64,000 nt of DNA from the IMG/VR virus record IMGVR_UViG_2703718817_000003; one strand, written 5' to 3'. Source of the DNA: a virus. Taxonomy: Duplodnaviria; Heunggongvirae; Uroviricota; Caudoviricetes. Under the pieces are notes generated by a model. The model did not search any database, was not told where the DNA came from, and saw nothing but the letters and a program-made list of their open reading frames with translations. The position numbers and the translations under genes were made by a program. Position 1 is the first letter of the stretch. Every line of letters starts with the position of its first letter. Below are positions 4,001 through 47,890 of this stretch, piece by piece.

Positions 4001-7000
4001 GAGAAAAAACCATCGAGGAGAACTCACAGCAAGCTGTCTTTAATGCTGTGGAAATGGGGCGTCTTGACCTGGCGTCTGGTAAACACCGTGATGCGCAGAA
4101 GAAGAACAAGATTAAGGATCAGGCCGCGAATACCGGTACAACGAAGAAGCAGAATATCCCGTACTTTGAGGATATGAACTTCGATAGCGTGATTGCCGAC
4201 GAGGGGCATAACTACCGCAACTCCTTTAATGCCGGGCGTGAAGCGGGACAACTGGCATATTTGCCTAACCCGGCAGTATCCAAGATGGCCCGCGACATGG
4301 CTGTAAAAGCTGCGTACATGATGAAACGCAACAACGGGCGTGGTGTAGTCATGCTGACGGCAACTCCGCTGGTGAACAGTCCGATTGATGCCTTCAACAT
4401 GCTGTCTACTGTCATTCCGCAGGAAGAGTGGATGCGCATGGGCATTATTACGCCGGATGATTTCGTTCGCGTGTTCGGCAAAACAGCCACAGTTCAGGTT
4501 CAGAAAATTTCCGGTGAGGTGGAAGAGAAGCAGGGGCTGGTGGGCTTCCAGAACCTTGATGGTCTGCGTGGTATTTTCCACCGTTGGACCACTCTGAAGA
4601 CTGCCGCAGATGTCGGAGCGACGGTTAAAATTCCCGACATCATCGAGAACACCTTGCAGATCCCGATGACAGGGGAGCAGGAGGCTGCTTATGAAGAGCT
4701 TCGTAAGCGTGCTCAGGAGTTAAGTCGCAATGATGAGCTGACAGTCGATGAAAACGGGCATATCACTAACGACAAACCGGATGATTTCATCTTCTCCATC
4801 ATCCGCGACATGGATAAGGTTGCTATAGATCCGGATCTGTATGCCAGTGCGATTACATTCCAGTTCCCCGTTGAGCTTGCAGACAAGGTAAAAGCTATTG
4901 CGGATGCCCTGCCAAAAGTCGCAGGCGGTAAAGTGGCAGATGATGCAGACGAGGCCGAAGAAGACGGCGCTGGTGGACTGGTCAGTACGCGTACCAGCAA
5001 GGTAGTGAAGACCACCTTTAGTGAACATCCGGCGCATGTTGAAATACGCGCCAGCATTGAACTGGAAGCTGAAATACTGAAGGCCATTGCTGCCGCCGGG
5101 ATTGATCTGCAGCAGGTATCACACCCCATCCCGCCGAAGTATGCCGCGCTGATCGAAAACCTTCGTGAAGGTTTGAAGAACGGTAAACAAATTGTCTTCA
5201 TTGATGAAAAAGCCCAGCACCAGAAGCTGCGCCGTATTATCGCCAGTGCACTGCAAATGCCGGAGCAGGAGATAGGCATTATCAATGCGACGACCGTTAG
5301 CCAGGCTGGCGGCATCAAGCTGAAGAAGGTGAATAAGCCGACTGAACCTACTCCGAATAAAAACGGTGAATACAAAGAAGGGGCATGGGAAACCTACTAC
5401 AGCAAACTTGCCCAATATGAGGATTATCTCTCAGCTAAAAATGATGCTGGCCTTGAGGGTATGGAAGGCATTGCCGCCGACTATAACGAAGGGCGCACGC
5501 GCATCATTATCTGTAACAAGAAGGCTGAAGTAGGTATTAACCTGCATATCGGGACAACCGATATCCACCACCTGACACTACCCTGGACACCAGCCAGTAT
5601 CGACCAACGAAATGGGCGCGGTGCGCGCGTAGGTTCACCGCAAGAGAAGGTCAATGTTCACTACTATTGTGGCAAAGGCACATTCGACGACTTCCGTCTG
5701 GATACGCTGAAACGTAAGAAAGACTGGATCAAGATGGTGATGACCTCCGACATGTCAGAGATCGCCAATGGTGATGCGGATGATGCTGATGAACGCGCCA
5801 TTATGCTGGCGGCAAACCCGGAAGAACGCCGCGCAATCATGGCTCGCCAGGCGCAAGAGCGCGAAGAACGTCTGAAACTGAAAGCACAGCGCGAGGCCAA
5901 CAATGCTCTCGATATCTACCTGAAAGCGGCAAACGCCGCTGGAAAAGATATCGGCATGATGGAGACAGAACTGAAAAGCGCGATGGAACAGATAGAGTAT
6001 TACCAGCGAAATCTTGACGACCTGATAAAAGCGGGTACGAACAGGAATGGGCAAAAATTCGCGCTTGAGCAGTTGAGTAGCTACAGAAAACGTGCGCGGG
6101 TGCTGCGGTTTGCGATCACCAGGGCAAAAGACGCGGATACCATAATGAAACGCTCTCGTGGTGATGTGGAGCGAGCTATTAAGTCTGGTGTGCTGGATAT
6201 CAGTATCGATGTTATTCAGAACCCACAGGAATATATGCGCACTGACAAGAATATCCTGTTGCATAAAGGTAGTTATTACCGTGCAGTCATTGATGATCGC
6301 GAAACAACAGCGATTGTCCGGGTGGAAAAAATTGACGGTGAAAAAGCACAATACCTCTGCCGTATCGCCTGGCTGGATAGAGCAAGTCGTTACGCTCGAT
6401 CACCGGGGTCAATCGTTACATTGCCGTTTGACTCTGTGATTGAAGCGGTAACTTTTGAAGAGGGGGTAGCTGAATCGCGCGCAACGGCTGCGCGTGGTGT
6501 TCAGTGCCACCAGCTATCAACAATACTTACTCGCGATCAGTTCTATGATGCTATTCGCAATGGGGTAATGAATGTTATTGCTGGTAAACCTGGTAATGCA
6601 TGGGGCGGTGGGTCAGCTATTAAATACTGGGCATATCGCACAGATGATGGTCAGATCGCGCTGTCATCGGCCTATGATGGCGTGATAGGCCAAAAAATCG
6701 GGCGAGCATCGGATATAGCACCTGAACGATGGATATATCCAGATGGCAACGATGAGGCGCTGAAGCGTGAAGTGGCAAAAATACAAGCCAGTGATAACCC
6801 GCTGAATATCGTGGACGGCGAGGGATTCCTCCAGGCATTGTATGGGTATGATTACATCCAGGGAATGCAGGCATGGGGCGCACAGGCAACGATGGATGAT
6901 GTTGTCCAGGAGTTCGAAAACTGGATGGCTGGGCGTGGTCTGTCAGGTCGTTCGCTTAATAAAGTCACTTCTGAAGATATTCTTAGCTTGTTCCGCAAAC

Positions 7001-12466: not shown

Positions 12467-12543
12467 GATGGTGTAGCTCAGTAGGATAGAGCAGCAGCCT
12501 TCTAAGCTGTCGGTCGGTGGTTCGAATCCACCCACCATCGCCA
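12467..12543 (+). tRNA. tRNA-Arg (anticodon UCU)
   Basis: Manual cloverleaf: acceptor GATGGTG/CACCATC, D-arm GCTC...GAGC, anticodon loop CTTCTAA, T-arm GGTGG-TTCGAAT-CCACC, encoded CCA. Confidence 0.8.
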
Positions 12544-12548
12544 ATTTA

Positions 12549-12635
12549 GGGGAGTTAGTCCGTAGGGGTAGCGGGGTAGACTGTAAATCTACTGTCATTG
12601 CGACTCGGATGGTTCGACTCCATCACTCCCCACCA
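12549..12635 (+). tRNA. tRNA-Tyr (anticodon GUA), class II with long variable arm; D-arm atypical
   Basis: Acceptor GGGGAGT/ACTCCCC, anticodon arm GTAGA-CTGTAAA-TCTAC, variable arm TGTCATTGCGACTCG, T-arm GATGG-TTCGACT-CCATC, CCA encoded. Confidence 0.6.
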
Positions 12636-12639
12636 AATT

Positions 12640-12715
12640 GCCGGTTTAGCTCAGTTGGTAGAGCAGTCGCTTTGTAAGCGAATGGTCAGCGGTTCGATCC
12701 CGTTAACCGGCACCA
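12640..12715 (+). tRNA. tRNA-Thr (anticodon UGU)
   Basis: Acceptor GCCGGTT/AACCGGC, D-arm GCTC-AGTTGGTA-GAGC, anticodon loop TTTGTAA, T-loop TTCGATC, CCA encoded. Confidence 0.85.
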
Positions 12716-12903
12716 ACACAACAGGTAAGGGTATTTTGCGACATCGGAGATCGCCGAGCTTGGCAGAGGGTTCGAATCCCTACGAAGTACCCTTGCCGTT
12801 GTGATGAATGCACAGGCTGATGTGCCGCAACTACAGTAGTGCGCGCTTTGCGGGGCTTGCTACAACCCTGTGTCGGAGTTCAGCACCGACCATCACAATC
12901 ACT

Positions 12904-12990
12904 GGAGAGTAGGGAGCATGGTGCTCAAGCGGTCTTGAAAACCGTCCCATTGCGCAAGCGATGATGGTTCGATTCCATTACTCTCCGCCA
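12904..12990 (+). tRNA. tRNA-Ser-like (anticodon UGA), class II; D-arm noncanonical
   Basis: Acceptor GGAGAGT/ACTCTCC plus GCCA; anticodon arm GCGGT-CTTGAAA-ACCGT; long variable region; T-arm GATGG-TTCGATT-CCATT. Confidence 0.55.
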
Positions 12991-13419
12991 GCGCAACGTT
13001 AAGAGTATTTGGCTAATTAAGCGAATGCCGGAAGCAGAACCGGATCACCAAATGCGTACAGGCGTCATCGCCGCCCAGTCAGCCAAATGCTCTTACCATT
13101 GCGGTGAATGCGGCTAAGCGCACGCGGAACAGTTAAAACAGTAAAGGTGGTCTTTTTACTGGCGTAACGAGCATCCATAAGTGATCCGGCGTTAATTGTT
13201 AACTGGTTAACGTCACCGGGAGGCACCCGGCACCGCAACCTAACAGCAATGGCGTTTTGTCTTAAAAGGTGGCTGCAAGTGATGGATTTTTGGGCGTTTG
13301 CCGATAAAAACCCGGAGTGGACATTATTGTTTCTGCTGGTGGTTGCATACGGGGTAGAGCAAGCGGCAAAAGCCTTACGCGGTTCTGGCAAAAAGCGTAA
13401 GCGTAATTAACAGTAATCT

Positions 13420-13495
13420 GGCCCTTTAGCTCAGTGGTTAGAGCGGGCGACTCATAATCGCACGGTCACCGGTTCAAGTCCGGTAGGGGCCACCA
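13420..13495 (+). tRNA. tRNA-Ile2-like (anticodon CAU, lysidine type) or tRNA-Met
   Basis: GGCCCTTTAGCTCAGTGGTTAGAGC...CTCATAA...GGTTCAAGTCCGG...AGGGGCCACCA; closely resembles enterobacterial ileX from memory. Confidence 0.75.
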
Positions 13496-13949
13496 CATTT
13501 GGTTGTAACACGGCGTATGGCACATGCGTCGTTAGCGGTCTGGTGTAGCTGTTAGGTGCCTTACTAACACTGCATGGGCACACCAGGTAGCCGGAATGTG
13601 CAAGTCACCGTTGGAGGGATAGCGGACTCAGGGACTCACCATCCTGGCGATTCGGTGTGACAGCCGGAATAGCACGGCGTACAACAGGAAAAGGTGTTTA
13701 ATTAATACGAGCGCCTTCTCCGTTGTGGTAATTGCGGCTATGCGCTCGTGACGAAGCCATTTTCATTCACTACGTTCTGATAAGTGTCGTCGCCGGGCGT
13801 GGCTAACCTGGCAGGTGGAGGCACCACCGCCACAACTCCTTTCAATTCATCATATAGCCGCTCAGGCTGTAACCCTTAATTAATACGAAGTTACGACGTC
13901 ACTACCGGTTCAGCCGGGGGATAGTCGCGCGTGTAAAAAAGGAGACGTT

Positions 13950-14525
13950 ATGTTAACGGCGAACGATAACGCGTATTCAGAAGATGATCTCGTTTTGAGT
14001 GACTTTATAGGGCGACGAGAATGCTGGACGCAAAAGCGCGAGGAGCTTTATGCAGCGTTAGTTCGTAAAGGCGTCAACATCGAAACCGCACAGAACGGTG
14101 ATATGACAGTGGTAAGTGTTGGACTGCACGGCGTAAGCGTGTCAGCAATCAATCATGAGCCGTACATTGCGTTATCCGAGTCAATGGTAAGGTTAGTTAA
14201 GTTCCTGAAGTACACAGAAGCGAATAACGTGCTCATCGCCAAAAAGAACATCCCGTTCTCATCGGCCTTTTACTGGATGATGAAGGGGCTTGATGCCCGG
14301 CGAACATCATGGCCTAAAGGGAGCTATATATCGATGCTCCGTGGCAGTGTTGGCAGCAAAGAAAAGCTCGTCGAATTCCTGCCGGAAGAGGCATTCGATA
14401 TTGTTGAAGGTTGTGATGTGATGGTTATGCCTCGCCTGGTAATGATGAATGGGGATTTACAGGCACAGACAGACTGGTTTGCAACTGGTGTTGATATTAT
14501 CGCTACTGACTGGGAGGTTTTTTGA
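13950..14525 (+). CDS. hypothetical protein with C-terminal DUF2829-like domain
   Basis: 191 aa; C-terminal FSSAFYWMMKGLDARRTSWPKGSY...TDWFATGVDIIATDWEVF has the W...RR..W...DW-x-V pattern. Confidence 0.5.
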   Translation: MLTANDNAYSEDDLVLSDFIGRRECWTQKREELYAALVRKGVNIETAQNGDMTVVSVGLHGVSVSAINHEPYIALSESMVRLVKFLKYTEANNVLIAKKNIPFSSAFYWMMKGLDARRTSWPKGSYISMLRGSVGSKEKLVEFLPEEAFDIVEGCDVMVMPRLVMMNGDLQAQTDWFATGVDIIATDWEVF

Positions 14526-27210: not shown

Positions 27211-27510
27211 TTATGGTTGACTCCAGTTATCTTCAATAACAATGCTCAATCTTTGTAGCCATTCTGCTAACTTCAGCATTGCTTCTCTTTCGCTTAAACC
27301 ACGAGGGAAATCATCAAGCGATATTGTTGGCTTGAAATTCCCGAAATTATCCATTTCAACGGTCAGATTTTGCTCCAGCACGGTATTCCTTACGCGGCTA
27401 TTGTGCCGGAGCAAATATACTGAGCGCGATTTATTGGTTTTGTGGTCTAGCTTATATTCGGTAAGTATCATATGGCTTCTGCCATGATTATTACCGCGCC
27501 ACATAATCAC
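27211..27510 (-). CDS. hypothetical protein
   Basis: 99 aa ORF. Confidence 0.4.
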   Translation of the reverse strand: MIMWRGNNHGRSHMILTEYKLDHKTNKSRSVYLLRHNSRVRNTVLEQNLTVEMDNFGNFKPTISLDDFPRGLSEREAMLKLAEWLQRLSIVIEDNWSQP

Positions 27511-27516
27511 TCCGTG

Positions 27517-27918
27517 TTAATAAGAAAAGTAGACCGTTGCGACTCTGTTATATTGATCGAACGAAATAGCATTTACTTCATAGCTGGTGGGTATCTTTTC
27601 GCCAAGAATGTAACCAGGCCATGATTTCCACGGAATTTCTGCTCGTTCGTCATGCCACACTGCGCAACCAAGAGAACCGACCGTCTCTCCATACCGTTTT
27701 CCGCAAGTAACAAAGCCTATATTTGGCTTATCTTGCGTGACTGCTACAGTGGTAGTATTTGCGGATGCATTGATTGCAGTGCGTTGCTCCTGCTCGCTTG
27801 CGGCTGAGGCGCTAATTGCTGCCGTTGTTGCGGCGGTTGCAACAATAACCGATGCATGTGATAAATGGCAGGCAGATAACATTGCCAGAAAAATAATAGT
27901 TCTCCGAAATTTAGCCAT
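27517..27918 (-). CDS. secreted protein (signal peptide)
   Basis: Start chosen at ATG 27918 (MAKFRRTIIFLAMLSACHLSHA...); Ala/Thr-rich linker then Cys-containing domain. Confidence 0.45.
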   Translation of the reverse strand: MAKFRRTIIFLAMLSACHLSHASVIVATAATTAAISASAASEQEQRTAINASANTTTVAVTQDKPNIGFVTCGKRYGETVGSLGCAVWHDERAEIPWKSWPGYILGEKIPTSYEVNAISFDQYNRVATVYFSY

Positions 27919-28094
27919 TGATTTACCCTTTATTGCGAACATATTTAGCTGTGTGTTGCCGATGCGCGGAGATTCTCTTATATCAATTCCACGCGCTCTG
28001 CTAACGAGCAATCCAAATAATCATCCGGATGCTTGTCGGTGTTATTAATGATGCGAATCCTCAAATCTTTTCACCTTTGAGGATAAGTTGCAGG

Positions 28095-28773
28095 TTAGCC
28101 ACGGTTAACTCCTTGCTGTGTGGCGTCGAGTAATAAATCCCACAACCGCTGAGAGCAATTTCCGCATGTACAGCGTTGACCCACAACGTTTATCGCGTTG
28201 CTGATTTCCGGCGTTACCTGTTTAGGAACCATAACCCAACCATCCGGAGTTACCGGAAGCGAGAACGGCAGCACATCTCTGTGAACAAGTTTTTGCTGTG
28301 ACAGGTTATCCAGAACTTTCTGTACTGCTGCATCACCGAATACACCAAGCGCATCTGCCATAACTCCTACAACCTGATAAGCCTCAGCGCATACCGTGGA
28401 TAAACCATCCGGAATTACCGGAGAGTTGCCTGCCAGTCTACGCAAAACAGTCTTAACCGCCTCAATACGGTCATCATCGCAACTTTCCAGCGTATCTATG
28501 CGATCGAGCATGATGATGGCGTTATCAATATCAGGATTGCCGGTCCACTCATTACCGCGATTGGATTCGGCAGCCTGGTTGCCGCGTACTGGTTGATTCT
28601 CGGCTTTACCCTGTCTGTCGTCGCTGCATGAATGCCCTTCCAGCCAGACCAGTGCTTGTCGCATGAAATACGCAATATGCTTGCCGTGGTAATCGTCTTC
28701 ATCGATGTGAAAAGCGATACTGCGGATATATTCAATTGCGTTTTCAATGGCCTCCGGCGTTATCGGTGCTGAC
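28095..28773 (-). pseudogene. 3' portion of a gene split by the IS2 insertion
   Basis: Reading frame stays open from 28664 up to the IS2 boundary at 28773 and is in phase with the 5' portion at 30105-30477 once one CTGAC copy is removed. Confidence 0.6.
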
Positions 28774-28784
28774 TGGATTTGCCC

Positions 28785-29690
28785 CTATATTTCCAGACAC
28801 CTGTTATCACTTAACCCATTACTGGCCTGCTGCCGCAGATATTCCCGTGGCGAGCGATAACCCAGTGCACTATGCGGATGCCATTCGTTATAATGCTCGA
28901 ACGCCTCTGCAAGGTTCTTTGCTGCCGTTAACCCGTCTGGTTTAGGCATGATACTGATGTAGTCACGCTTTATCGTTTTCACGAAGCTCTCTGCTATGCC
29001 GTTACTCTCCGGACTCCGCACCGCCGTGTTCTTCGGTTCAAGCCCCAACATCCGGGCAAACTGCCGTGTTTCATTAGCCCGGTAGCATGAACCATTATCC
29101 GTCAGCCACTCTACTGGAGACGCCGGAAGCTCGTTGCCGAAGCGGCGTTCCACCGCTCCCAGCATTACGTCCTGTACTGTTTCACTGTCGAAGCCGCCCG
29201 TAGTGACTGCCCAGTGCAGTGCCTCACGGTCACAGCAGTCCAGCGCGAACGTGACTCGCAGTTTTTCTCCGTTATCACAGCGGAACTCGAACCCGTCAGA
29301 GCACCATCGTTGATTGCTTTCTTTCACGGCCACTTTGCCAGTATGTGCCCGTTTCGATGGCGGTACAGCGGTTTTTCGCTCAAGCAACAGCGCATTCTGG
29401 CGCATGATCCGGTAAACACGTTTGGCATTGATCGCAGGCATACCATCAAGTTCGGCCTGTCTGCGAAGCAGCGCCCATACCCGACGATAACCATACGTGG
29501 GCAGCTCTCCGATAACATGGTGTATACGGAGAAGCACATCCGTATCATCTGAGTGACGGCTGCGGCGACCATCTTTCCAGTCATCGGTTCGTCTGAGAAT
29601 TACGTGCAACTGCGCACGCGACACCCGGAGACAACGGCTGACTAAGCTTACTCCCCATCCCCGGGCAATAAGGGCGCGTGCGCTATCCAC
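28785..29690 (-). CDS. insD: IS2 transposase OrfB (InsD), DDE integrase core
   Basis: 301 aa; IS3-family catalytic region (...[25 protein letters not shown]...[14 protein letters not shown]...). Confidence 0.85.
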
Positions 29691-30013
29691 TTTTTTGCAC
29701 GCCCGTATTCAACGGCTTCTTTAAGGAGTTCATTTTCCATCGTTTTTTTGCCGAGCAGGCGCTGGAGTTCTTTAATCTGCTTCATGGCAACAGCAAGTTC
29801 AGAGGCAGGAACGACCTGCTCTCCTGCGGCCACAGCAGTAAGACTTCCCTCCTGGTATTGCTTGCGCCAGAGAAATAACTGGCTGGCTGCCACACCGTGT
29901 TGCCGGGCAACAAGGGAGACCGTCATTCCCGGTTCAAAACTCTGCTGAACAATAGCGATCTTTTCCTGTGTAGTACGCCGTCTGCGTTTCTCCGGTCCTA
30001 AGACATCAATCAT
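29648..30013 (-). CDS. insC: IS2 transposase OrfA (InsC), HTH
   Basis: [53 protein letters not shown]...; start at ATG 30013 with GGAGAG Shine-Dalgarno. Confidence 0.85.
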
Positions 30014-30104
30014 CTGCTCTCCAATGACTAGTCTAAAAACTAGTATTAAGACTATCACTTATTTAAGTGATATTGGTTGTCTGGAGATTCAGGGGGCCAG
30101 TCTA

Positions 30105-30477
30105 CTGACATATTTTTATTTTGGAGTGCCAAGACGCGGCTGGCATCCTCTACGCCTTTAACTGCATCTGCGCAGTAGTTATAGCGATTGCATTCCACTA
30201 ACTTCTGCTTGAGATTTTCAATTGCTTGTGCGACATCAGCCTGCAATTCCGGAACTGGCGGAGTGGCATATAACGGCACCCACTTTGGTGCTTTATCCCC
30301 GACCGAACGCTGATACCAGTCACCCGGTTTGTATTCATAAAAATCACCAACTGGCTCTGCTTCCAGAGATGCCAGCGCAATTTCATAAGCACGGCGCTCA
30401 ATATTGTCTCGCACGTCCAGACTGCCTATGCGCTCTTTGATTTCTTTAATCAGTTCTTTGTCGGTTAAAGTGGTCAT
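30105..30477 (-). pseudogene. 5' portion of the gene split by IS2
   Basis: 124 native codons (MTTLTDKELIKEIKERIGSL...) then read-through into the IS2 end; see finding. Confidence 0.6.
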
Positions 30478-30487
30478 AAATTATGCC

Positions 30488-31021
30488 TCAGTTGTATCCG
30501 ATTGGATTAACCGCAACAATAACGCCATCCGCGAACAAATCTTTAATGAGGTGTTCGCTCGGCTCGCCTTTTTCGTACTCTTCAATAAGGTAAGTGTCTC
30601 CATCCTCATTGATATAAACTGGAAGAATGGAACCGTTGATGAAGTAGGTTCCGTTGTTATCGAGGATTTTTGCCTCGGCGATTTGTTTTTTGGTAAAACG
30701 ATCTTCTTTTTTCAAAGTTGCCATATCTGTTTCCTTATGTGGGTTAATTTTATTGTGTAGCTTCCTGAATGGGGTCCACACTATATCGATATACAGTTCA
30801 ACTAACGGTTCAAATACTTTCCCCATTAGAACAGTCACTAATATTGAGGCTATTGGTATCAGCAACACGAAAAACAGAATGATAAACAGCAATTCTAGTG
30901 CTCTACTCTTTCGCGGATATTCTTTTCTGAATAAAGTGGGCATTTCCTCCCCATTAAATGCCTCAATGATTTCTCCAGTGTTTTGCGCTGCACCTGAATT
31001 ATCTTTAAATCCTTCTTTCAT
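30488..31021 (-). CDS. membrane protein, hypothetical
   Basis: 177 aa with one strong transmembrane segment (LLFIILFFVLLIPIASILVTVLMG). Confidence 0.45.
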   Translation of the reverse strand: MKEGFKDNSGAAQNTGEIIEAFNGEEMPTLFRKEYPRKSRALELLFIILFFVLLIPIASILVTVLMGKVFEPLVELYIDIVWTPFRKLHNKINPHKETDMATLKKEDRFTKKQIAEAKILDNNGTYFINGSILPVYINEDGDTYLIEEYEKGEPSEHLIKDLFADGVIVAVNPIGYN

Positions 31022-31716
31022 CGTTTGCTATCTTCCTCACACCCAAGATATGAAAGAGATGTAATTGCTTTTGCACGGAAACCACCAACCTTGCTAAGTG
31101 CGCTTTTAAGTGCGTCAAGGTCAGATTGTGATTTGATCATGAAAGTTAACCGCGCAATTCCAGACATAGAGTCAGAACCATTCACTGCGTTGTAGTGATA
31201 TATGTATCGGGTGACTGATTGAGTCACGCCCTCCTGCTGGTGGTTTATATTGGCGTCCTGTCTTGTGTTGGCCTGCTCCAACTCTTCGATACGTTCAGCC
31301 ATCGCAGCACACTCTTCAAAGTTGCTTAATGCTTTTCGCTCCGATTCAGCGCATTGTTTTTCCAGTTCTGCTATGCGCTTACCTCCATCCGCGATTACTC
31401 CCTCGTAATGCTCGCGCTGCTCGTTGAGTTTTGATTTTGCCGACTCCAGTTGTTTTGTTAGTTCCACAATACGGCAAACATCGTTGATACGCGTTTCCTC
31501 TAATGCGTTGATCTCATCCAGTAGTGCCAAAGCAACCTTGGGATTAAAGGCAGCAATAAATTCAGCGTTGTTTTTCAGAACGTGTTGCGCAATGGCCTGA
31601 CTACTTAGTCGGACCTCATAACCACGTGCGCCACGGTGTGGTTTATATGAGTCCCAGTCTCCCCACGTTGCTTTCACTGCCGCCTCACGCAGTGCCTGGT
31701 AATTAATTTCGCTCAC
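31018..31716 (-). CDS. Ead/Ea22-like coiled-coil protein
   Basis: GTG start; N-terminus [15 protein letters not shown] shared with the 31703 and 37245 paralogs; coiled-coil centre. Confidence 0.55.
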   Translation of the reverse strand: MSEINYQALREAAVKATWGDWDSYKPHRGARGYEVRLSSQAIAQHVLKNNAEFIAAFNPKVALALLDEINALEETRINDVCRIVELTKQLESAKSKLNEQREHYEGVIADGGKRIAELEKQCAESERKALSNFEECAAMAERIEELEQANTRQDANINHQQEGVTQSVTRYIYHYNAVNGSDSMSGIARLTFMIKSQSDLDALKSALSKVGGFRAKAITSLSYLGCEEDSKR

Positions 31717-32161
31717 TGGTTGCCTCCTTATTAATCAGTTTATACAGGTGCACCACAGTCACAGAGAGTGCATCCATCGCTCGTTTATCCAGGCGCGGGG
31801 CCAGAGCAACCAGTTCATTTATTGCAATCTGAATACGCTGCTCCGCCGCCAGCGTCGCGCGATTGCTCTCCAGTTCTGCAATTCGGCACATGGCATCAAT
31901 ATTTGCGTCTTCCAGGCGCTTAATTTCGCCCAGTAGCGCCAGCGCAACTTTTGGTGGGATAGCCGCGATATAACGGGCATTGGCACCAGCGTTTCTCAGC
32001 CCATCAATACCAGGCCAGTCAATAAAGTATCCGCAATGCCTACCCTCAGACGTGCGCGCAGGATAAATGCCGTTATGACCCGGCAAAATATATGCTACCC
32101 ATTCATCTTGCGTTGCCTGTTCCGCCGCCTCGCGCAGTTCTTGATAGTTAATTTTGATCAC
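31703..32161 (-). CDS. Ead/Ea22-like coiled-coil protein
   Basis: GTG start; N-terminus IKINYQELREAAEQA; coiled coil CRIAELESNRATLAAE. Confidence 0.55.
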   Translation of the reverse strand: MIKINYQELREAAEQATQDEWVAYILPGHNGIYPARTSEGRHCGYFIDWPGIDGLRNAGANARYIAAIPPKVALALLGEIKRLEDANIDAMCRIAELESNRATLAAEQRIQIAINELVALAPRLDKRAMDALSVTVVHLYKLINKEATSERN

Positions 32162-32414: not shown

Positions 32415-32650
32415 TGGTTGCCTCCTTTGCGGAGTTGCGCTGCGATGCACGAAAAAAAAGACTCCCGAGTATGACAGTTAAGAGCTGGTGCGAACGCCGC
32501 GTTAAGAACGGCGGCATCACAGCCGTCATCAATATAGAGCGCAATTTTTTTCTCCAGGCGCGCTTTGGCTTCCTGCAACTGCATACCCCGGCACGCACGC
32601 GGGATATAATCAGCAATTTGAGCGATAGCTTTTTCGTTCTGTTTAAACAT
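32411..32650 (-). CDS. hypothetical protein ending in QLRKGGNQ
   Basis: 79 aa; C-terminus [10 protein letters not shown] shared with the 36213 and 37727 proteins; stop overlaps downstream GTG (GTGA). Confidence 0.45.
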   Translation of the reverse strand: MFKQNEKAIAQIADYIPRACRGMQLQEAKARLEKKIALYIDDGCDAAVLNAAFAPALNCHTRESFFSCIAAQLRKGGNQ

Positions 32651-32846
32651 GCTTCACCTCGATAGGCTTGATGGTGTCTAACAGCAGTCGGCGGCGCGTA
32701 TTTTCTGCAAAATGGCGGCGTCCAGTTTCTTTGTGGTAAAACTCGTTTTTGCCAACGACCCACATCCGCTCTGTTTGGTGCAGTTTTTTTACCTGCGGGC
32801 CATCTTTGGTGATCACGGTACCGGTATGGGTTTTTACGATTGTCAT
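32643..32846 (-). CDS. hypothetical small protein
   Basis: 67 aa ORF, 8-nt overlap with downstream gene. Confidence 0.4.
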   Translation of the reverse strand: MTIVKTHTGTVITKDGPQVKKLHQTERMWVVGKNEFYHKETGRRHFAENTRRRLLLDTIKPIEVKHV

Positions 32847-32895
32847 GCCACTACCTATTCGAACAGATGAACGAGATTTGATGCATACTCACGGT

Positions 32896-33624
32896 TTATT
32901 CCTGAATGCGCTTAAACTCGATTACCCACACCCAGGGATTAGCGTTCCAGCTTTCTTCACCATAGATGGATTCCCACAGGCGCTGGAACGCAACCTTGGC
33001 CATTGCGAAATCCCCCTTGGGAGTAAGGAATGTTCCCGGGTGATCAGGGAGCAAACTTCCAGCAGGCGGAACGCCCTCATCCCTTGCATCGCATTCGCTG
33101 ATATCGTTCAACCGCTCAACGCGCACGTTGGTAATTTCCAACAGGATGCGTGATGCCCATCGCGGCATGTGAATTGATGGACGCCACCCACCATCAAACT
33201 TTTCATTCACAGTGTGAGGTTTCCAGTCGGCATCATCGGGTATCGACCATAAACCGTAATCACCAGGCTTTTGCTCACAACTGGCCCGATAAATCCTTGC
33301 TGCGTTCTTCTCATCGCCACGACAAAGGTTGTCGTTCCAGTCCACACTGCAACCATCTTCATTGCCTAATATCGCCCATGTTTCACGAACCCAAATTCGA
33401 TCGCCGACGATACCAAAGGGGCAATTGAAAACACTGCTTACACCATCAGCCCCGTACCACTGAAAACCTGCACCAATTTCCCTAACCATCACTGGTGCTT
33501 CTGGACCAACTTCCGCAGGCTGATTTTTCATTATCCGCCGCGTCTGCGTTTTCCTTCCTTCGAGGATGGCTCGGACCATCTCATCGTTAAAAATCATCCC
33601 GCGTTCTTTCATTTTTTGATCCAC
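32896..33624 (-). CDS. ASCH-like domain protein (hypothetical)
   Basis: 242 aa; N-terminal FNDEMVRAILEGRKTQTRR resembles the ASCH/PUA-like signature (ILxGxKTxTxR). Confidence 0.45.
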   Translation of the reverse strand: MDQKMKERGMIFNDEMVRAILEGRKTQTRRIMKNQPAEVGPEAPVMVREIGAGFQWYGADGVSSVFNCPFGIVGDRIWVRETWAILGNEDGCSVDWNDNLCRGDEKNAARIYRASCEQKPGDYGLWSIPDDADWKPHTVNEKFDGGWRPSIHMPRWASRILLEITNVRVERLNDISECDARDEGVPPAGSLLPDHPGTFLTPKGDFAMAKVAFQRLWESIYGEESWNANPWVWVIEFKRIQE

Positions 33625-44458: not shown

Positions 44459-44794
44459 TCAACTCAGTAGCTTTGTTAACTCCCTTAATACAAGGTAGAA
44501 GAGTAACAAAAACACTGACGTGGATACCTGCTGAGTTAAAGAAGCACTAATGAATTTATTCAATAAATCAATCAGCTTATTAAAAATATTCATCTTTTCG
44601 AATCCATTCGATCGGTAAATAACACCCAGCTCACTATCGAGCTGGTCCATGCCTTAAGATTAATGAAAGTCACTTGTTGACAGTCAATAAATTCCAGGGC
44701 GGCGAAAAAACTCTGTCTATACGGATAGTGCTTGCATTTTGCTCTTTCTGCGTGTAGCGTATATACACAGGTTACACGCACGAATGGAATTATT

Positions 44795-45076
44795 TTGATT
44801 AAGTCATTTCGCCATAAAGGGCTTGAACGCTTTTTCAAGACAGGTTCAACCGCAGGCATTCAGGCCAAACATGCGGTTAAGCTACGCATTCAATTGACTG
44901 CGCTTAATACAGCTAAACGCCCGGACGATATGTCTGCGCCTGGATGGGAATTGCACCCTCTAAAGGGGGCGGACCTTAAAGGTCACTGGGCAATATCGGT
45001 AAACGGTAACTGGCGACTTACCTTCCGATTTGAAGGAGAAGACGCAATTCTAGTTGACTATCAGGATTATCATTGA
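44795..45076 (+). CDS. higB: HigB-like (RelE/ParE superfamily) toxin
   Basis: [39 protein letters not shown]...[41 protein letters not shown] matches the plasmid-killer HigB pattern; start uncertain (TTG 44795 or upstream ATG 44732). Confidence 0.7.
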
Positions 45077-45084
45077 GGAACACT

Positions 45085-45366
45085 ATGAGTCGTATGCATA
45101 ATCCCGCGCATCCAGGCGCGGTTCTTCGTGAATATTTGGGAGACATGTCAGTCACAGACGCCGCTGCTGCATTAGGCATTACTCGCACGGCGCTTTCCCG
45201 AATTCTGAACGAAAAAGCAGGTATTTCTGCTGATATGGCACTTCGTCTGGAGTCCGCTCTTGGAACCAGTGCCGAAATGTGGACCGGTATGCAATCCCAG
45301 TATGAGCTTTGGGTTGCTTCGCAAACCACTCGCCCAAACATCCGTCCATTATTTTTCCACGCATAA
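45085..45366 (+). CDS. higA: HigA-like HTH antitoxin
   Basis: [66 protein letters not shown] matches the HigA antidote pattern; toxin-first order typical of higBA. Confidence 0.7.
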
Positions 45367-45458
45367 TTTCACAGCGTCACCAAGCCAGGTGGCGCTGCTT
45401 TCTCGCATTTCACACCCTGCATACAGTTCCCCCCAGGTTATGACTGTGAGGAACTGTT

Positions 45459-45788: not shown

Positions 45789-46986
45789 CTTCCTGAAAAA
45801 TCAGGACGGGCGATATATCACTGACGGCCTGTCCTCTAAGGATTTCACACGCGTATTTGAACTCATCAGGAAAGAGCAAAACCGCAAACGCCGCCAGGCG
45901 CACAGGACACTCACGCCGGGCAGGCTTAGGAATAAATCAGCCGAAGACATTCTTAAGCTGGGGAAAAAGAAAGGCGGCACGTTCTTTACGCGTGACGATC
46001 TGAAAGGCTTCGAAAAGCTGCGAAGCAAAGCTCGCGAAAAATACGACAGCAAGACGGCTGGCATTACATACGCACAACTGGTAGCGTCCAGCCAGGCTAT
46101 CGATATTAAGCGAGCAAATAACGCCGTAGACGACGGTTCTGGTATCAAAAGAGCTACGCCCGTATCTCTTCGTCACAATGTGATTAATATCCGCGTGGAA
46201 GCGTCCGATATATCCGTTCACCAGCACCACATTGTCCGGGTACGTTTTGAAGAATGGGATCAGATGGTCGATGACATCGCAGAAGACGATAAATCAGCCC
46301 TGAAAGTCACAAAATCACTGTGTGCCGGGCGAGTGTCTTTCGATTGTGACTGCGGTCGCCATCAATACTGGTATCGCTACATCGCCACTGCGGGTAACTT
46401 TGCCCTGGCCCCGCCAAAAGAATACGCCTATCCAAAAGTTCGCAACCCTAAGCTGCAAGGCGTCGCCTGTAAACATGTGATCCACTCAATGACACGACTA
46501 CAGTCTGCCAGTTGGCAGATGAGTATTGCTCGCGCCCTGCAAAAAGCTGCAACGCAAGTTGCCTTTGGTGACGATCGCCGCCGCACGACAAAACACTTCA
46601 CAAAAGAAGACGAGAAGGCGTTCAATCGAAACCGTAGCAGCAAAACGAATGTTGAGGCAGCTAAACGTGAATGGAAGCTCTATCAGAAACGCCAGGCCGC
46701 TTTAAGCTCAAAACTGGCAAAGGACAACGGTAAGATCGACAAGCTGCGCGACCAACTGACCAGGGCCAGAAAGTTATCCGACGCACAGAAAAAACGGGCA
46801 GCGGCAAAAGAAGCTGCTTTGCAACGGGAGAAGCAGAAAAACAAGGAACTTCAGCAACGCCTTGCTGATCAGTTCGCACTGAAGAAGCAGGCGTTCATTG
46901 ATGCGCTTGTTATGGCAGGAACACCACCAGCACAAGCCGAAAAGATGTTCATGGCGTATGTGAAGAACAACGTAAAAAATGTATAA
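45781..46986 (+). CDS. SWIM zinc-finger-like protein with basic coiled-coil C-terminus
   Basis: 401 aa; CDCGRHQYWYRY...CKHVIH fits the CxCxnCxH SWIM pattern; K/R/Q-rich coiled coil at the C-terminus. Confidence 0.5.
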   Translation: MPDFLKNQDGRYITDGLSSKDFTRVFELIRKEQNRKRRQAHRTLTPGRLRNKSAEDILKLGKKKGGTFFTRDDLKGFEKLRSKAREKYDSKTAGITYAQLVASSQAIDIKRANNAVDDGSGIKRATPVSLRHNVINIRVEASDISVHQHHIVRVRFEEWDQMVDDIAEDDKSALKVTKSLCAGRVSFDCDCGRHQYWYRYIATAGNFALAPPKEYAYPKVRNPKLQGVACKHVIHSMTRLQSASWQMSIARALQKAATQVAFGDDRRRTTKHFTKEDEKAFNRNRSSKTNVEAAKREWKLYQKRQAALSSKLAKDNGKIDKLRDQLTRARKLSDAQKKRAAAKEAALQREKQKNKELQQRLADQFALKKQAFIDALVMAGTPPAQAEKMFMAYVKNNVKNV

Positions 46987-47187
46987 GTGTTTGCAAGGAC
47001 ATGAATAGTACACTATTATGATGGTGAAGGAATGGTACATGTTGAACCAAACCTTCGAGGATGCAGCAGACTGAAGAAATTCAGACATCCCGCAACCAGC
47101 TATCATAACAGGTCAAACCAGTTGTGATACTTGGTCAAGGCAAAGTCCGGTAATGGCGTTCTGAATACCAGAAAATAATTTCTGGCG

Positions 47188-47217
47188 AAGCCCACCTTAA
47201 GGTGGGCTTTGTTATTT
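47188..47217. terminator. Bidirectional Rho-independent terminator
   Basis: AAGCCCACC-TTAA-GGTGGGCTT with T-rich tracts on both sides, between convergent genes. Confidence 0.6.
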
Positions 47218-47751
47218 TGGTGGCTTAGGAAGCGGTTTGTTCCTTAACAGATTGTATGCGATTGCGAAAAACTTCACTGACCTGCCATTTGGTTTTTCTG
47301 ATACCGGGTAGGCGCTAGTGATGTGTAACCGCAACTTTTTCTTTTCCCTGAAAGCCTTAAACGCAACAAAATAATACTCCTTGTTACCCTCCCCAATATT
47401 TACCTCAATAACGGCATAGCTTCCGTATCCGGCATGGATCACCTTACCTTCCGACAATGACAGAATTGCCTCTTTTAAGTGAAGTTTGGCAAGATTATAG
47501 CGACGCTCACAAAATGGACGAGACTCTTTAGGGGCGTGGTACATTAACGCCAGTTTCTCTTCCTCAGTCTGGTGTGCATAGTCTTTTGTGAAGCAGTGAA
47601 AAGAGTACGTAACCCAAAAGCGATACTCTATCGGTTGCTTTCCTTCTTGTTGCTGAACAAACACAGCCTGATGAGCATCAAGAAATGACAAATCACGAAT
47701 AACACCATCAGGGTGTTCAAATGCTCGCCACTTTTCAACTTCCTGACTCAC
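47212..47751 (-). CDS. hypothetical protein
   Basis: 179 aa ORF. Confidence 0.45.
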   Translation of the reverse strand: MSQEVEKWRAFEHPDGVIRDLSFLDAHQAVFVQQQEGKQPIEYRFWVTYSFHCFTKDYAHQTEEEKLALMYHAPKESRPFCERRYNLAKLHLKEAILSLSEGKVIHAGYGSYAVIEVNIGEGNKEYYFVAFKAFREKKKLRLHITSAYPVSEKPNGRSVKFFAIAYNLLRNKPLPKPPK

Positions 47752-47890
47752 TGTCTCTCCTTAAATTTCAACCGAGCAATGATACCGCACCTCTGATAGT
47801 TTTCGCCTCCCCAATCTACATAAATCTCCTGTCAGCAAACAAATCACAATCTCCCGAAAATCTTCCTTTCGATACCTGATAAATCGACCT

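Follow-up and report, generated by a model that had tools for sequence, protein, structure and literature searches.

We report that a gene of 348 codons, an accessory gene of a D6-like phage-plasmid, has in all likelihood been split in two by transposition of the insertion sequence IS2. The window (the whole stretch of DNA analysed, 64 kb) carries a single copy of IS2, a complete element of 1331 bp on the minus strand at 28774..30104, which is flanked by two copies of CTGAC (30105..30109 and 28769..28773; GTCAG on the coding strand). Joining the minus-strand segments on either side of the element (30477..30110 and 28773..28095) gives a 1047-nt, 348-codon open reading frame (ORF) whose only stop codon is the terminal one, and the reconstructed junction reads ...LALQNKNMS-APITPEAIENAIEY.... 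The duplicated GTCAG corresponds to nt 369-373 of the gene (codons M123-S124-A125), and the frame is open when one repeat copy is removed but broken if both copies are kept or both are removed. An earlier note on this DNA, made from the sequence alone, had described an IS2 of exactly 1331 bp between these two CTGAC copies and two gene halves that join in one frame of about 348 amino acids; every coordinate, the quoted junction and the single stop were reproduced here.

Anatomy and identity of the IS2 element

The element has the features expected of IS2, a member of the IS3 family: a length of about 1.33 kb, left and right inverted repeats (IRL and IRR), two overlapping ORFs with a frameshift, and a 5-bp duplication. 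IRL (42 bp, 30063..30104, minus strand; TAGACTGGCCCCCTGAATCTCCAGACAACCAATATCACTTAA) begins TAGACTGGCCCCC at the 30104 side and faces the 5′ half of the target gene, and IRR (41 bp, 28774..28814, plus strand; TGGATTTGCCCCTATATTTCCAGACACCTGTTATCACTTAA) begins TGGATTTGCCCC at 28774, in agreement with the imperfect repeats of 42 and 41 bp described for IS2 (PMC3299598). Both transposition genes are intact and point the same way as the interrupted gene, on the minus strand: insC (orfA, 121 aa, 29648..30013; Pfam HTH_Tnp_1, E = 4.6e-19) and insD (orfB, 301 aa, 28785..29690; Pfam rve, E = 8.5e-20, rve_3 and HTH_21). An AAAAAAG slippery motif (A6G, 29690..29696, minus strand; IS position 409) marks the -1 frameshift that yields the OrfAB transposase. 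The insD stop codon, TAG at 28785-28787, lies within IRR, in frame with the 3′ gene fragment (...CLEI*GQIQSAPITPE).

IS2A of E. coli K-12 MG1655 (NC_000913.3 381260-382590) is also 1331 bp long, with the same IRL/IRR termini, insC and insD likewise in 0/-1 frames, and the A6G motif; its 5-bp target duplication reads ATTAC, against CTGAC in the window. The two elements differ by 58 substitutions and no indels (95.6% nucleotide identity), which change one amino acid in InsC and 11 in InsD; the first 30 nt are exactly those of IS2A, and the last 30 nt carry one mismatch, at position 1305. In ISfinder practice, copies count as isoforms from 95% nucleotide identity to the reference upward, and the window copy lies barely over this line. 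With 99.9%-identical IS2 copies present on other plasmids, the sequence identifies it as an isoform common on plasmids. Because the element is complete, with all of its sequence parts intact, it is presumably still mobile.

Insertion would have followed the copy-and-paste route of the IS3 family, through a figure-of-eight intermediate and then a minicircle, as described for IS2 (PMC3299598), and staggered target cuts 5 bp apart would have duplicated GTCAG. IS2 insertions are known in P1-type phage-plasmids: sit::IS2 of pSvP1 (5-bp repeat ACCAA; PMC6906374) shares with the window insertion the element, the replicon class, the 5-bp duplication and the interruption of a phage gene, although the target gene differs. 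The event described here is an ordinary, clean IS knockout, and its significance beyond annotation is small.

The host replicon and its uninterrupted relatives

Collinearity of the 64-kb window with NZ_CP104667.1 (97-99.5% identity) identifies the replicon as a D6-like, P1-related phage-plasmid. The gene set of NZ_CP104667.1 includes pacase A, portal, tail, Ref, Icd, lytic replication protein, ParM, RepB, phd/doc, hot and humD. Phage D6 has the same locus, and the pmgT-humD region is one of eight hypervariable regions in P1-like phage-plasmids (PMC9603915).

The earlier note had proposed a comparison with relatives lacking IS2, and three plasmids bear out its reading. NZ_CP104667.1, NZ_CP069647.1 and NZ_LR890273.1, all D6-like E. 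coli plasmids of ~90 kb, carry the ORF intact, with a lone GTCAG at the site and 99.1-99.7% identity along its full 1047 nt; the empty site (...AAAATAAAAATATGTCAGCACCG...) is uninterrupted and identical in all three. A 5-bp match would arise by chance with a probability of 1/1024, and the empty sites make the case for an insertion more decisive than that figure alone. When IS2 and one repeat were excised in silico, a single 5.8-kb high-scoring segment pair (HSP) was obtained to NZ_CP104667.1 and to NZ_CP114225.1 (effectively a second copy of NZ_CP104667.1); with IS2 left in place, there were two HSPs whose subject ranges shared exactly 5 bp. An ORF of the same family is also intact in NZ_CP173593.1, with one N-terminal module swapped (+6 codons), as judged at the level of the ORF.

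Junction probes found no place with at least 80% coverage of either junction in 5,426 complete E. coli genomes, nor did a 3.4-kb probe across the whole insertion find one in PLSDB, and the insertion is therefore private to the window replicon. The description of the insertion as recent in the earlier note agrees with this privacy and with the lack of decay, but it holds in a relative sense only, since in ~2.4 kb no mutation need appear even over a very long span of time.

A mosaic early-region gene family

The interrupted gene is best identified, from its alignments, as an allele of phage D6 orf104, which encodes a mosaic early-region accessory protein in the style of EaA/Ea22. In its architecture, an invariant core (aa 124-239) stands between N-terminal modules that vary and C-terminal modules that can be exchanged. 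In the window, the 5′ part (nt 1-368, codons 1-122 plus 2 nt; 30110..30477, minus strand) holds the N-terminal modules, and the 3′ part (nt 369-1047; 28095..28773, minus strand) holds the core, the C-terminal module and the stop. The conserved core (APITPEAIENAIEYIRSIAFHIDEDDYHGKHIAYF...NPDIDNAIIMLDRID...RRLAGN) is present, and alignments of 42 and of 79 relatives show it to vary little.

D6 orf104 (D6_104, 360 aa) starts at the same ATG as the window gene and is 91.9% identical to it over aa 1-259. Both D6 orf104 and RCS47 gp055 (285 aa) share with the window gene the core (aa 124-239) and the position upstream of hot-humD-phd-doc, whereas the N-module of RCS47 gp055 differs from that of the window allele, and the C-module is PmgU-like in D6, DUF551 in RCS47 and of a third type in the window (VIPDGLST...GWVMVPKQVTPEI...). 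Many sister alleles carry DUF551 as an alternative C-module; the window protein gave no match to Pfam DUF551 (PF04448) at E <= 1. P1 PmgU (111 aa) shares 93% identity with the C-module of D6 orf104, the positional homologue. We rejected the PmgU label, which appears in the D6 note, for the window allele: its BLASTP comparison with P1 PmgU gave E = 1.8, and only the D6 C-module is PmgU-like. The syntenic 76-90 kb interval of canonical P1 contains no homologue (best tblastn E = 2).

A profile search recovered, at E <= 1e-3, 719 clusters from 1.84 billion representatives and revealed only further shuffling of sub-modules within the 3′ fragment, with blocks at ~aa 1-68, 73-130, 113-225 and 171-225; this exhaustive search returned no annotated distant relatives. 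Among the 5,426 complete E. coli genomes, just 4 contain a place with at least 80% query coverage.

The window protein appears to resemble EaA/Ea22-type early proteins most, a likeness confined to architecture and one short N-terminal module that they share. Like Ea22 of lambda and Stx phages (PMC10834534), it is an early-region mosaic that joins a common N-terminal segment to a helical middle part and to C-domains that can be interchanged, DUF551 among them, and its residues 1-44 share 82-95% identity with the N-termini of Stx-phage proteins that carry the annotation EaA or Ea22. Lambda Ea22, the only such protein to have been studied, modulates the lysis-lysogeny decision. The Pfam Ead_Ea22 profile (PF13935) did not match the window protein. 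It does match the neighbouring genes at 31018-31716 and 31703-32161.

The earlier note had called this a gene of unknown function, and the searches agree. The best Pfam hit was TBPIP, below threshold at E = 0.023; NCBIfam and PADLOC returned no matches to the window protein; sequence and profile searches of the PDB gave nothing better than E = 0.18; and PHROGs matches were to unknown-function families only. The homology and structure search that the note had suggested for the reconstructed protein placed its family, but did less for its fold: mean AlphaFold2 pLDDT was 40.0 for the full protein with 42 homologues and 43.6 for the 3′ 225 aa with 79 homologues, values at which fold-search matches would be meaningless.

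Predicted consequences of the insertion

Until IS2 arrived, the gene was intact and evolving under purifying selection. The 5′ piece now encodes a chimera of 140 aa (30055..30477, minus strand), with 124 native and 16 IS2-encoded residues, a product with no record in the contig collection. The 3′ piece has lost its upstream translation start: the codon of M123, which is ATG in intact copies and is used there as a start by PGAP, reads CAG downstream of IS2, and the longest leftover ORF (189 aa from M160; 28095..28664, minus strand) has no upstream Shine-Dalgarno sequence. The native Shine-Dalgarno, GAGG at 30486-30489 (-9 to -12), lies 8 nt before ATG1 and overlaps the stop codon of the upstream DUF4014 gene. 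The full-length product has probably been lost, and polarity may affect the genes that follow in this minus-strand operon, at 27918-27517 and 27510-27211 and on to hot and humD. No minus-strand promoter-like site was found in a consensus scan of 27400-31200. A hybrid outward promoter, combining a -35 in IRR with a flanking -10, was considered and rejected: at the 17-bp Pjunc spacing, the flank reads TCAGCA, a 1/6 match.

Loss of the product is probably tolerated because the gene appears to be a dispensable mosaic accessory gene in a hypervariable early region, a view to which its rarity among E. coli genomes and its absence from the P1 interval lend support. A non-neutral insertion, whether through selection against a costly or response-triggering product or because the gene is a hot target for IS2, seems improbable to us. 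IS2 is reported to be historically a major source of spontaneous mutations in P1, where it favours hot regions (Sengstag et al. 1983, as cited in PMC3299598), and classical P1::IS2 mutants are attributed to Sengstag and Arber; this long-known habit is suggestive only, and the classical hot region would lie near lpa (gene 10), several kb from the locus interrupted here. Equally suggestive only is the 13-nt A/T tract that adjoins the target, given the reported preference of IS2 for the vicinity of intrinsically curved DNA (PMC3299598). Against selection or a hot target, no second IS-disrupted copy of the gene occurs among the matches listed, and synteny with the C1-operated pmgT operon of P1 suggests that the gene is probably repressed in the prophage, which would leave little cost to select against.

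The 5-bp target also spans the boundary between codons S124 and A125, where the mosaic family exchanges its N-terminal modules. We give very little credence to the idea that this position is non-accidental, with curvature or an AT-rich linker marking both the IS2 target and the recombination junction, or with IS events shuffling modules of the EaA/Ea22 type.

A single gene rather than two

As far as its alleles allow us to judge, the target of IS2 is a single gene. A locus of two adjacent cistrons, in which an N-module remnant precedes a 226-aa gene starting at M123 and IS2 at their boundary has removed the start of the second only, is very unlikely. Such an arrangement would fit the RefSeq/PGAP annotation of the intact locus, where a pseudo N-terminal fragment (nt 1-129) is followed by a CDS that falls short of the full ORF (226, 282 or 314 aa), and the M123 ATG does overlap the IS2 target site. 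Modules of the EaA-type family also exist as stand-alone genes (P1 pmgU consists of only the C-module of D6 orf104), and in phage ev017 and CFT073-type prophages pieces of the query are found in several genes across 1.75 kb. However, every intact allele runs through 348 codons with no internal stop, and among the closest alleles all eight polymorphic sites within nt 1-368 (8/8) fall at third-codon positions, which indicates that this stretch is translated in frame and that ribosomes would read through into the core. M123 has no Shine-Dalgarno sequence (upstream sequence AAAATAAAAAT), whereas ATG1 has GAGG. The PGAP starts in intact copies (nt 103, 199 or 367) are inconsistent across near-identical DNA, which points to an annotation artefact. 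Finally, the curated records of D6 orf104 and RCS47 gp055 each annotate a single CDS, with a different N-module fused in frame to the same core in gp055.

Two separate genes in relatives had been named in the earlier note as the observation that would count against a split gene; PGAP does divide the relatives' copies, yet the ORF beneath is one, and the substitution patterns and curated phage records favour a single 348-aa product over the RefSeq split with its three different starts. The locus should carry the annotation of a single interrupted gene rather than of a pair of hypothetical ORFs.

That IS2 was merely misplaced here by the assembler is hardly credible, multi-copy though the element is in most E. 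coli (matches in 4,548-4,814 of 5,426 genomes), as a mis-join would not yield a complete element ending exactly at IRL and IRR along with two perfect copies of a 5-bp sequence of which each of the three empty sites has just one.

Together with the near-identical intact plasmids, the IS2 allele offers a ready mutant/wild-type pair for studying the mosaic family. The reconstructed protein is identical to that of two of the three empty-site alleles, and a 348-aa database protein is reported to match it with 100% identity and coverage, although the alignment row differs at one residue (T231A).

IS2 insertion in a single 348-codon gene

The interrupted gene lies on the minus strand of the window, with its 5′ part at 30110-30477, its 3′ part at 28095-28773 and IS2 between them at 28774-30104. 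Direct reading of the region and a computed rebuild placed the CTGAC repeat copies at 28769-28773 and 30105-30109, separated by 1331 bp; these open with TGGATTTGCCCCTATATTTCCAGACACC (IS2 IRR), and their far end, read as the reverse complement, is TAGACTGGCCCCCTGAATCTCCAGACAACC (IS2 IRL). When the element and one repeat copy are removed and 30477..30110 is joined to 28773..28095 (minus strand), a 1047-nt, 348-codon ORF results, with the junction ...LALQNKNMS|APITPEAIENAIEY...; the frame is lost if both repeat copies stay or both go. Coordinates, repeats, the exact element length and frame were all reproduced, and the earlier note's description of an IS2 with a CTGAC duplication splitting a gene of about 348 aa, halves still in frame, is therefore correct in every element. 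The insertion is real and the note's interpretation is supported. IS2 has knocked out a dispensable mosaic phage gene of unknown function, an ordinary event of a kind long known for P1-type elements.

Two separate genes at this locus in related genomes would have counted against the earlier note's reading, and RefSeq does annotate the intact locus as a pseudo fragment at nt 1-129 (“missing C-terminus”; numbering from ATG1 of the reconstructed gene) together with a CDS whose start is placed at nt 103, 199 or 367. Yet both the sequence and the D6 and RCS47 homologues show one gene. PGAP's start choice varies by record and release (NZ_CP069647.1, NZ_CP104667.1, NZ_CP173593.1) though the DNA is nearly identical, no stop codon falls inside the 348 codons in any intact allele, and NZ_CP069647.1 and NZ_LR890273.1 encode exactly the rebuilt protein. 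In nt 1-368 the three closest alleles vary at eight sites (48, 51, 57, 111, 126, 135, 156 and 225), every one a third-codon position, and differences from phage D6 in this stretch fall 2/2/9 by codon position; it follows that translation of the 5′ part uses the gene's frame and that ribosomes must continue into the core. A GAGG lies 8 nt ahead of ATG1 and overlaps the stop codon of the DUF4014 gene upstream, and before M123 there is only AAAATAAAAAT. The phage D6 curators annotated a single CDS from the same ATG (orf104, 360 aa), and RCS47 gp055 has a different N-module joined in frame to this core at the identical junction (...KLYTTPP|APIALEAIEN...). Given the open frame, the third-codon pattern, the GAGG and these single CDSs, the PGAP split is best explained as an artefact that arises when starts in a mosaic gene are chosen by evidence.

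Empty sites, host replicon and age of the insertion

The rebuilt gene aligns end to end with three E. coli plasmids of ~90 kb (NZ_CP104667.1, NZ_CP069647.1 and NZ_LR890273.1), to which it is 99.1-99.7% identical, and all three carry an uninterrupted AAAATAAAAATATGTCAGCACCG with a single GTCAG. In the complete-genome collection, NZ_CP173593.1 has an internal N-module swapped, with six codons added and the frame kept, and NZ_CP114225.1 is essentially the NZ_CP104667.1 plasmid again. The 64-kb window aligns collinearly with NZ_CP104667.1 (97-99.5% identity). At the gene locus the alignment breaks only at 28773/30105, with the two HSPs sharing exactly 5 bp of the subject, and in silico excision of IS2 turns the locus into one 5.8-kb HSP. 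NZ_CP104667.1 encodes RepB, ParM, pacase A, portal, capsid and tail proteins, Ref, Icd, a lytic replication protein, hot, humD and phd/doc, and is therefore a P1-related, D6-like phage-plasmid. The homologous locus is present in phage D6.

Neither 500-bp junction probe found a place with at least 80% coverage in 5,426 complete E. coli genomes, a 3.4-kb probe across the whole insertion found none in PLSDB at that coverage, and no record of the 140-aa chimeric product was found; across all that was searched, the insertion is thus private to the window replicon. The closest available relatives differ by ~1.5-2% from the window in the flanks, and therefore none is an isogenic empty site. The earlier note also called the insertion recent. 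Consistent with this are the perfect repeat pair, the undamaged element, two gene halves with zero amino-acid changes from the intact alleles and junctions that are absent elsewhere. Taken alone, an undecayed stretch of ~2.4 kb dates the event only weakly.

The IS2 element

The element is assigned as an IS2 isoform because it aligns with E. coli K-12 IS2A at equal length, with 0 indels and 58 substitutions (95.6% identity); one residue differs in InsC and 11 in InsD. It is co-directional with the interrupted gene, and insC (121 aa; Pfam HTH_Tnp_1; coding strand, window minus), the frameshift motif AAAAAAG at IS position 409 and insD (301 aa; Pfam rve, rve_3 and HTH_21) are intact. The window holds one IS2 copy only, and 99.9% identical copies are present on other enterobacterial plasmids. 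A 5-bp duplication is typical of IS2 insertions: K-12 IS2A has one (ATTAC), as does an IS2 insertion in the P1-like plasmid pSvP1 (ACCAA; PMC6906374).

In this family the N-modules meet the core at S124|A125, and the five target nucleotides (nt 369-373) span precisely that junction; nucleotide homology to P1-like “EaA” genes starts at nt 371. By our post hoc estimate, assuming about five module boundaries in 1047 nt, such overlap has a ~2-3% chance; we treat it as coincidence unless a systematic survey shows otherwise. A 13-nt A/T tract precedes the target on the coding strand (AAAATAAAAATAT; window 28769-28773 / 30105-30122), and IS2 reportedly favours the vicinity of curved DNA (PMC3299598).

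Consequences of the insertion

The 5′ piece now encodes 124 native and 16 IS2-encoded residues, stopping inside IRL at 140 aa. The M123 ATG is lost from the 3′ piece, reading CAG downstream of IS2, and the first start codon there is M160, which has no Shine-Dalgarno sequence. The full-length protein is thus presumably lost, and polarity on downstream genes of the long co-directional block is possible. No outward hybrid promoter was apparent: the scan gave no minus-strand site, and by our own reading the flank at Pjunc spacing is only TCAGCA. Four codons (GQIQ) upstream of S124 (28769-28790, minus strand), the TAG that ends insD shares the reading frame of the 3′ piece; an amber-suppressing host could in principle yield a transposase-core fusion across it.

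Loss of the gene is plausibly tolerated, because the region is hypervariable (the pmgT-humD interval is one of eight such regions in P1-like phage-plasmids; PMC9603915), places covering at least 80% of the query occur in only 4 of 5,426 complete genomes, and canonical P1 has no homologue in the syntenic 76-90 kb interval. In P1 the equivalent operon has a C1 operator, and by analogy the interrupted gene's operon would be repressed in the prophage.

A mosaic gene family

Searches with the rebuilt protein gave a sub-threshold TBPIP match in Pfam, no match in NCBIfam or PADLOC, only unknown-function families in PHROGs and a best E of 0.18 in PDB. Homology searches turned up thousands of proteins from enterobacterial phages and prophages under the names “EaA”, “Eaa prophage protein” or “DUF551 domain-containing”; one of 348 aa was reported at 100% identity and coverage, though its aligned row has one difference, T231A. 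Their alignment describes a beads-on-a-string family with variable N-terminal modules, a largely invariant core (aa 124-239) and alternating C-terminal modules (DUF551, PmgU-like or the window allele's own). An exhaustive search of 1.84 billion cluster representatives returned only 719 clusters at E ≤ 1e-3, and in it the 3′ part reassorts as sub-modules of ~50-60 aa. Two AlphaFold2 runs (mean pLDDT 40.0 and 43.6) predicted helical hairpins with low-confidence linkers between them.

The phage D6 annotation “similar to pmgU, putative morphogenetic function” is not transferable, since P1 PmgU is 93% identical to the D6 orf104 C-module and unrelated to the window allele. PmgU (111 aa; 9223-9558 in L014, phage P1) covers only the C-terminal module of orf104 (2501-3583 in L006, phage D6), a stand-alone gene in P1 being fused to an EaA-type core in D6.

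Over residues 1-44 the protein shares 82-95% identity with the N-termini of Stx-phage proteins that carry the annotation EaA or Ea22, and the gene neighbours include Ead/Ea22-like and DUF4014 genes. Lambda/Stx Ea22, an early mosaic protein whose N-terminus is shared, whose middle is helical and whose C-terminal domains, DUF551 among them, are interchangeable, reportedly favours lysogeny (PMC10834534). It is the best architectural analogue, but the rebuilt protein does not match the Pfam Ead_Ea22 profile, and the analogy is therefore a low-confidence “works-like” guess.

Other features of the window

The upstream neighbour (30488-31021, minus strand) is intact and encodes a DUF4014 protein of 177 aa that contains a hydrophobic segment; RefSeq calls its homologue in related plasmids an incomplete pseudogene. 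Four segments (31543-31929, 32427-33571, 44521-45394 and 46968-47840) found no counterpart by megablast in NZ_CP104667.1, which is collinear elsewhere, and are presumably accessory-region module swaps; the first two have Ead/Ea22-like genes around them and lie a short way upstream of the interrupted gene. Five tRNA genes cluster at 12467-13495 (plus strand): Arg-TCT, Tyr-GTA, Thr-TGT, Ser-TGA and a CAT-anticodon tRNA, called Met by ARAGORN and Ile in the related plasmid's annotation. The gene at approximately 13900-14500, mapped from NZ_CP104667.1 63371-63946, is possible anti-defence cargo; its counterpart there bears two labels, “MW1434 family type I TA system toxin” in PLSDB and “Thoeris anti-defense Tad2 family protein” in current RefSeq.
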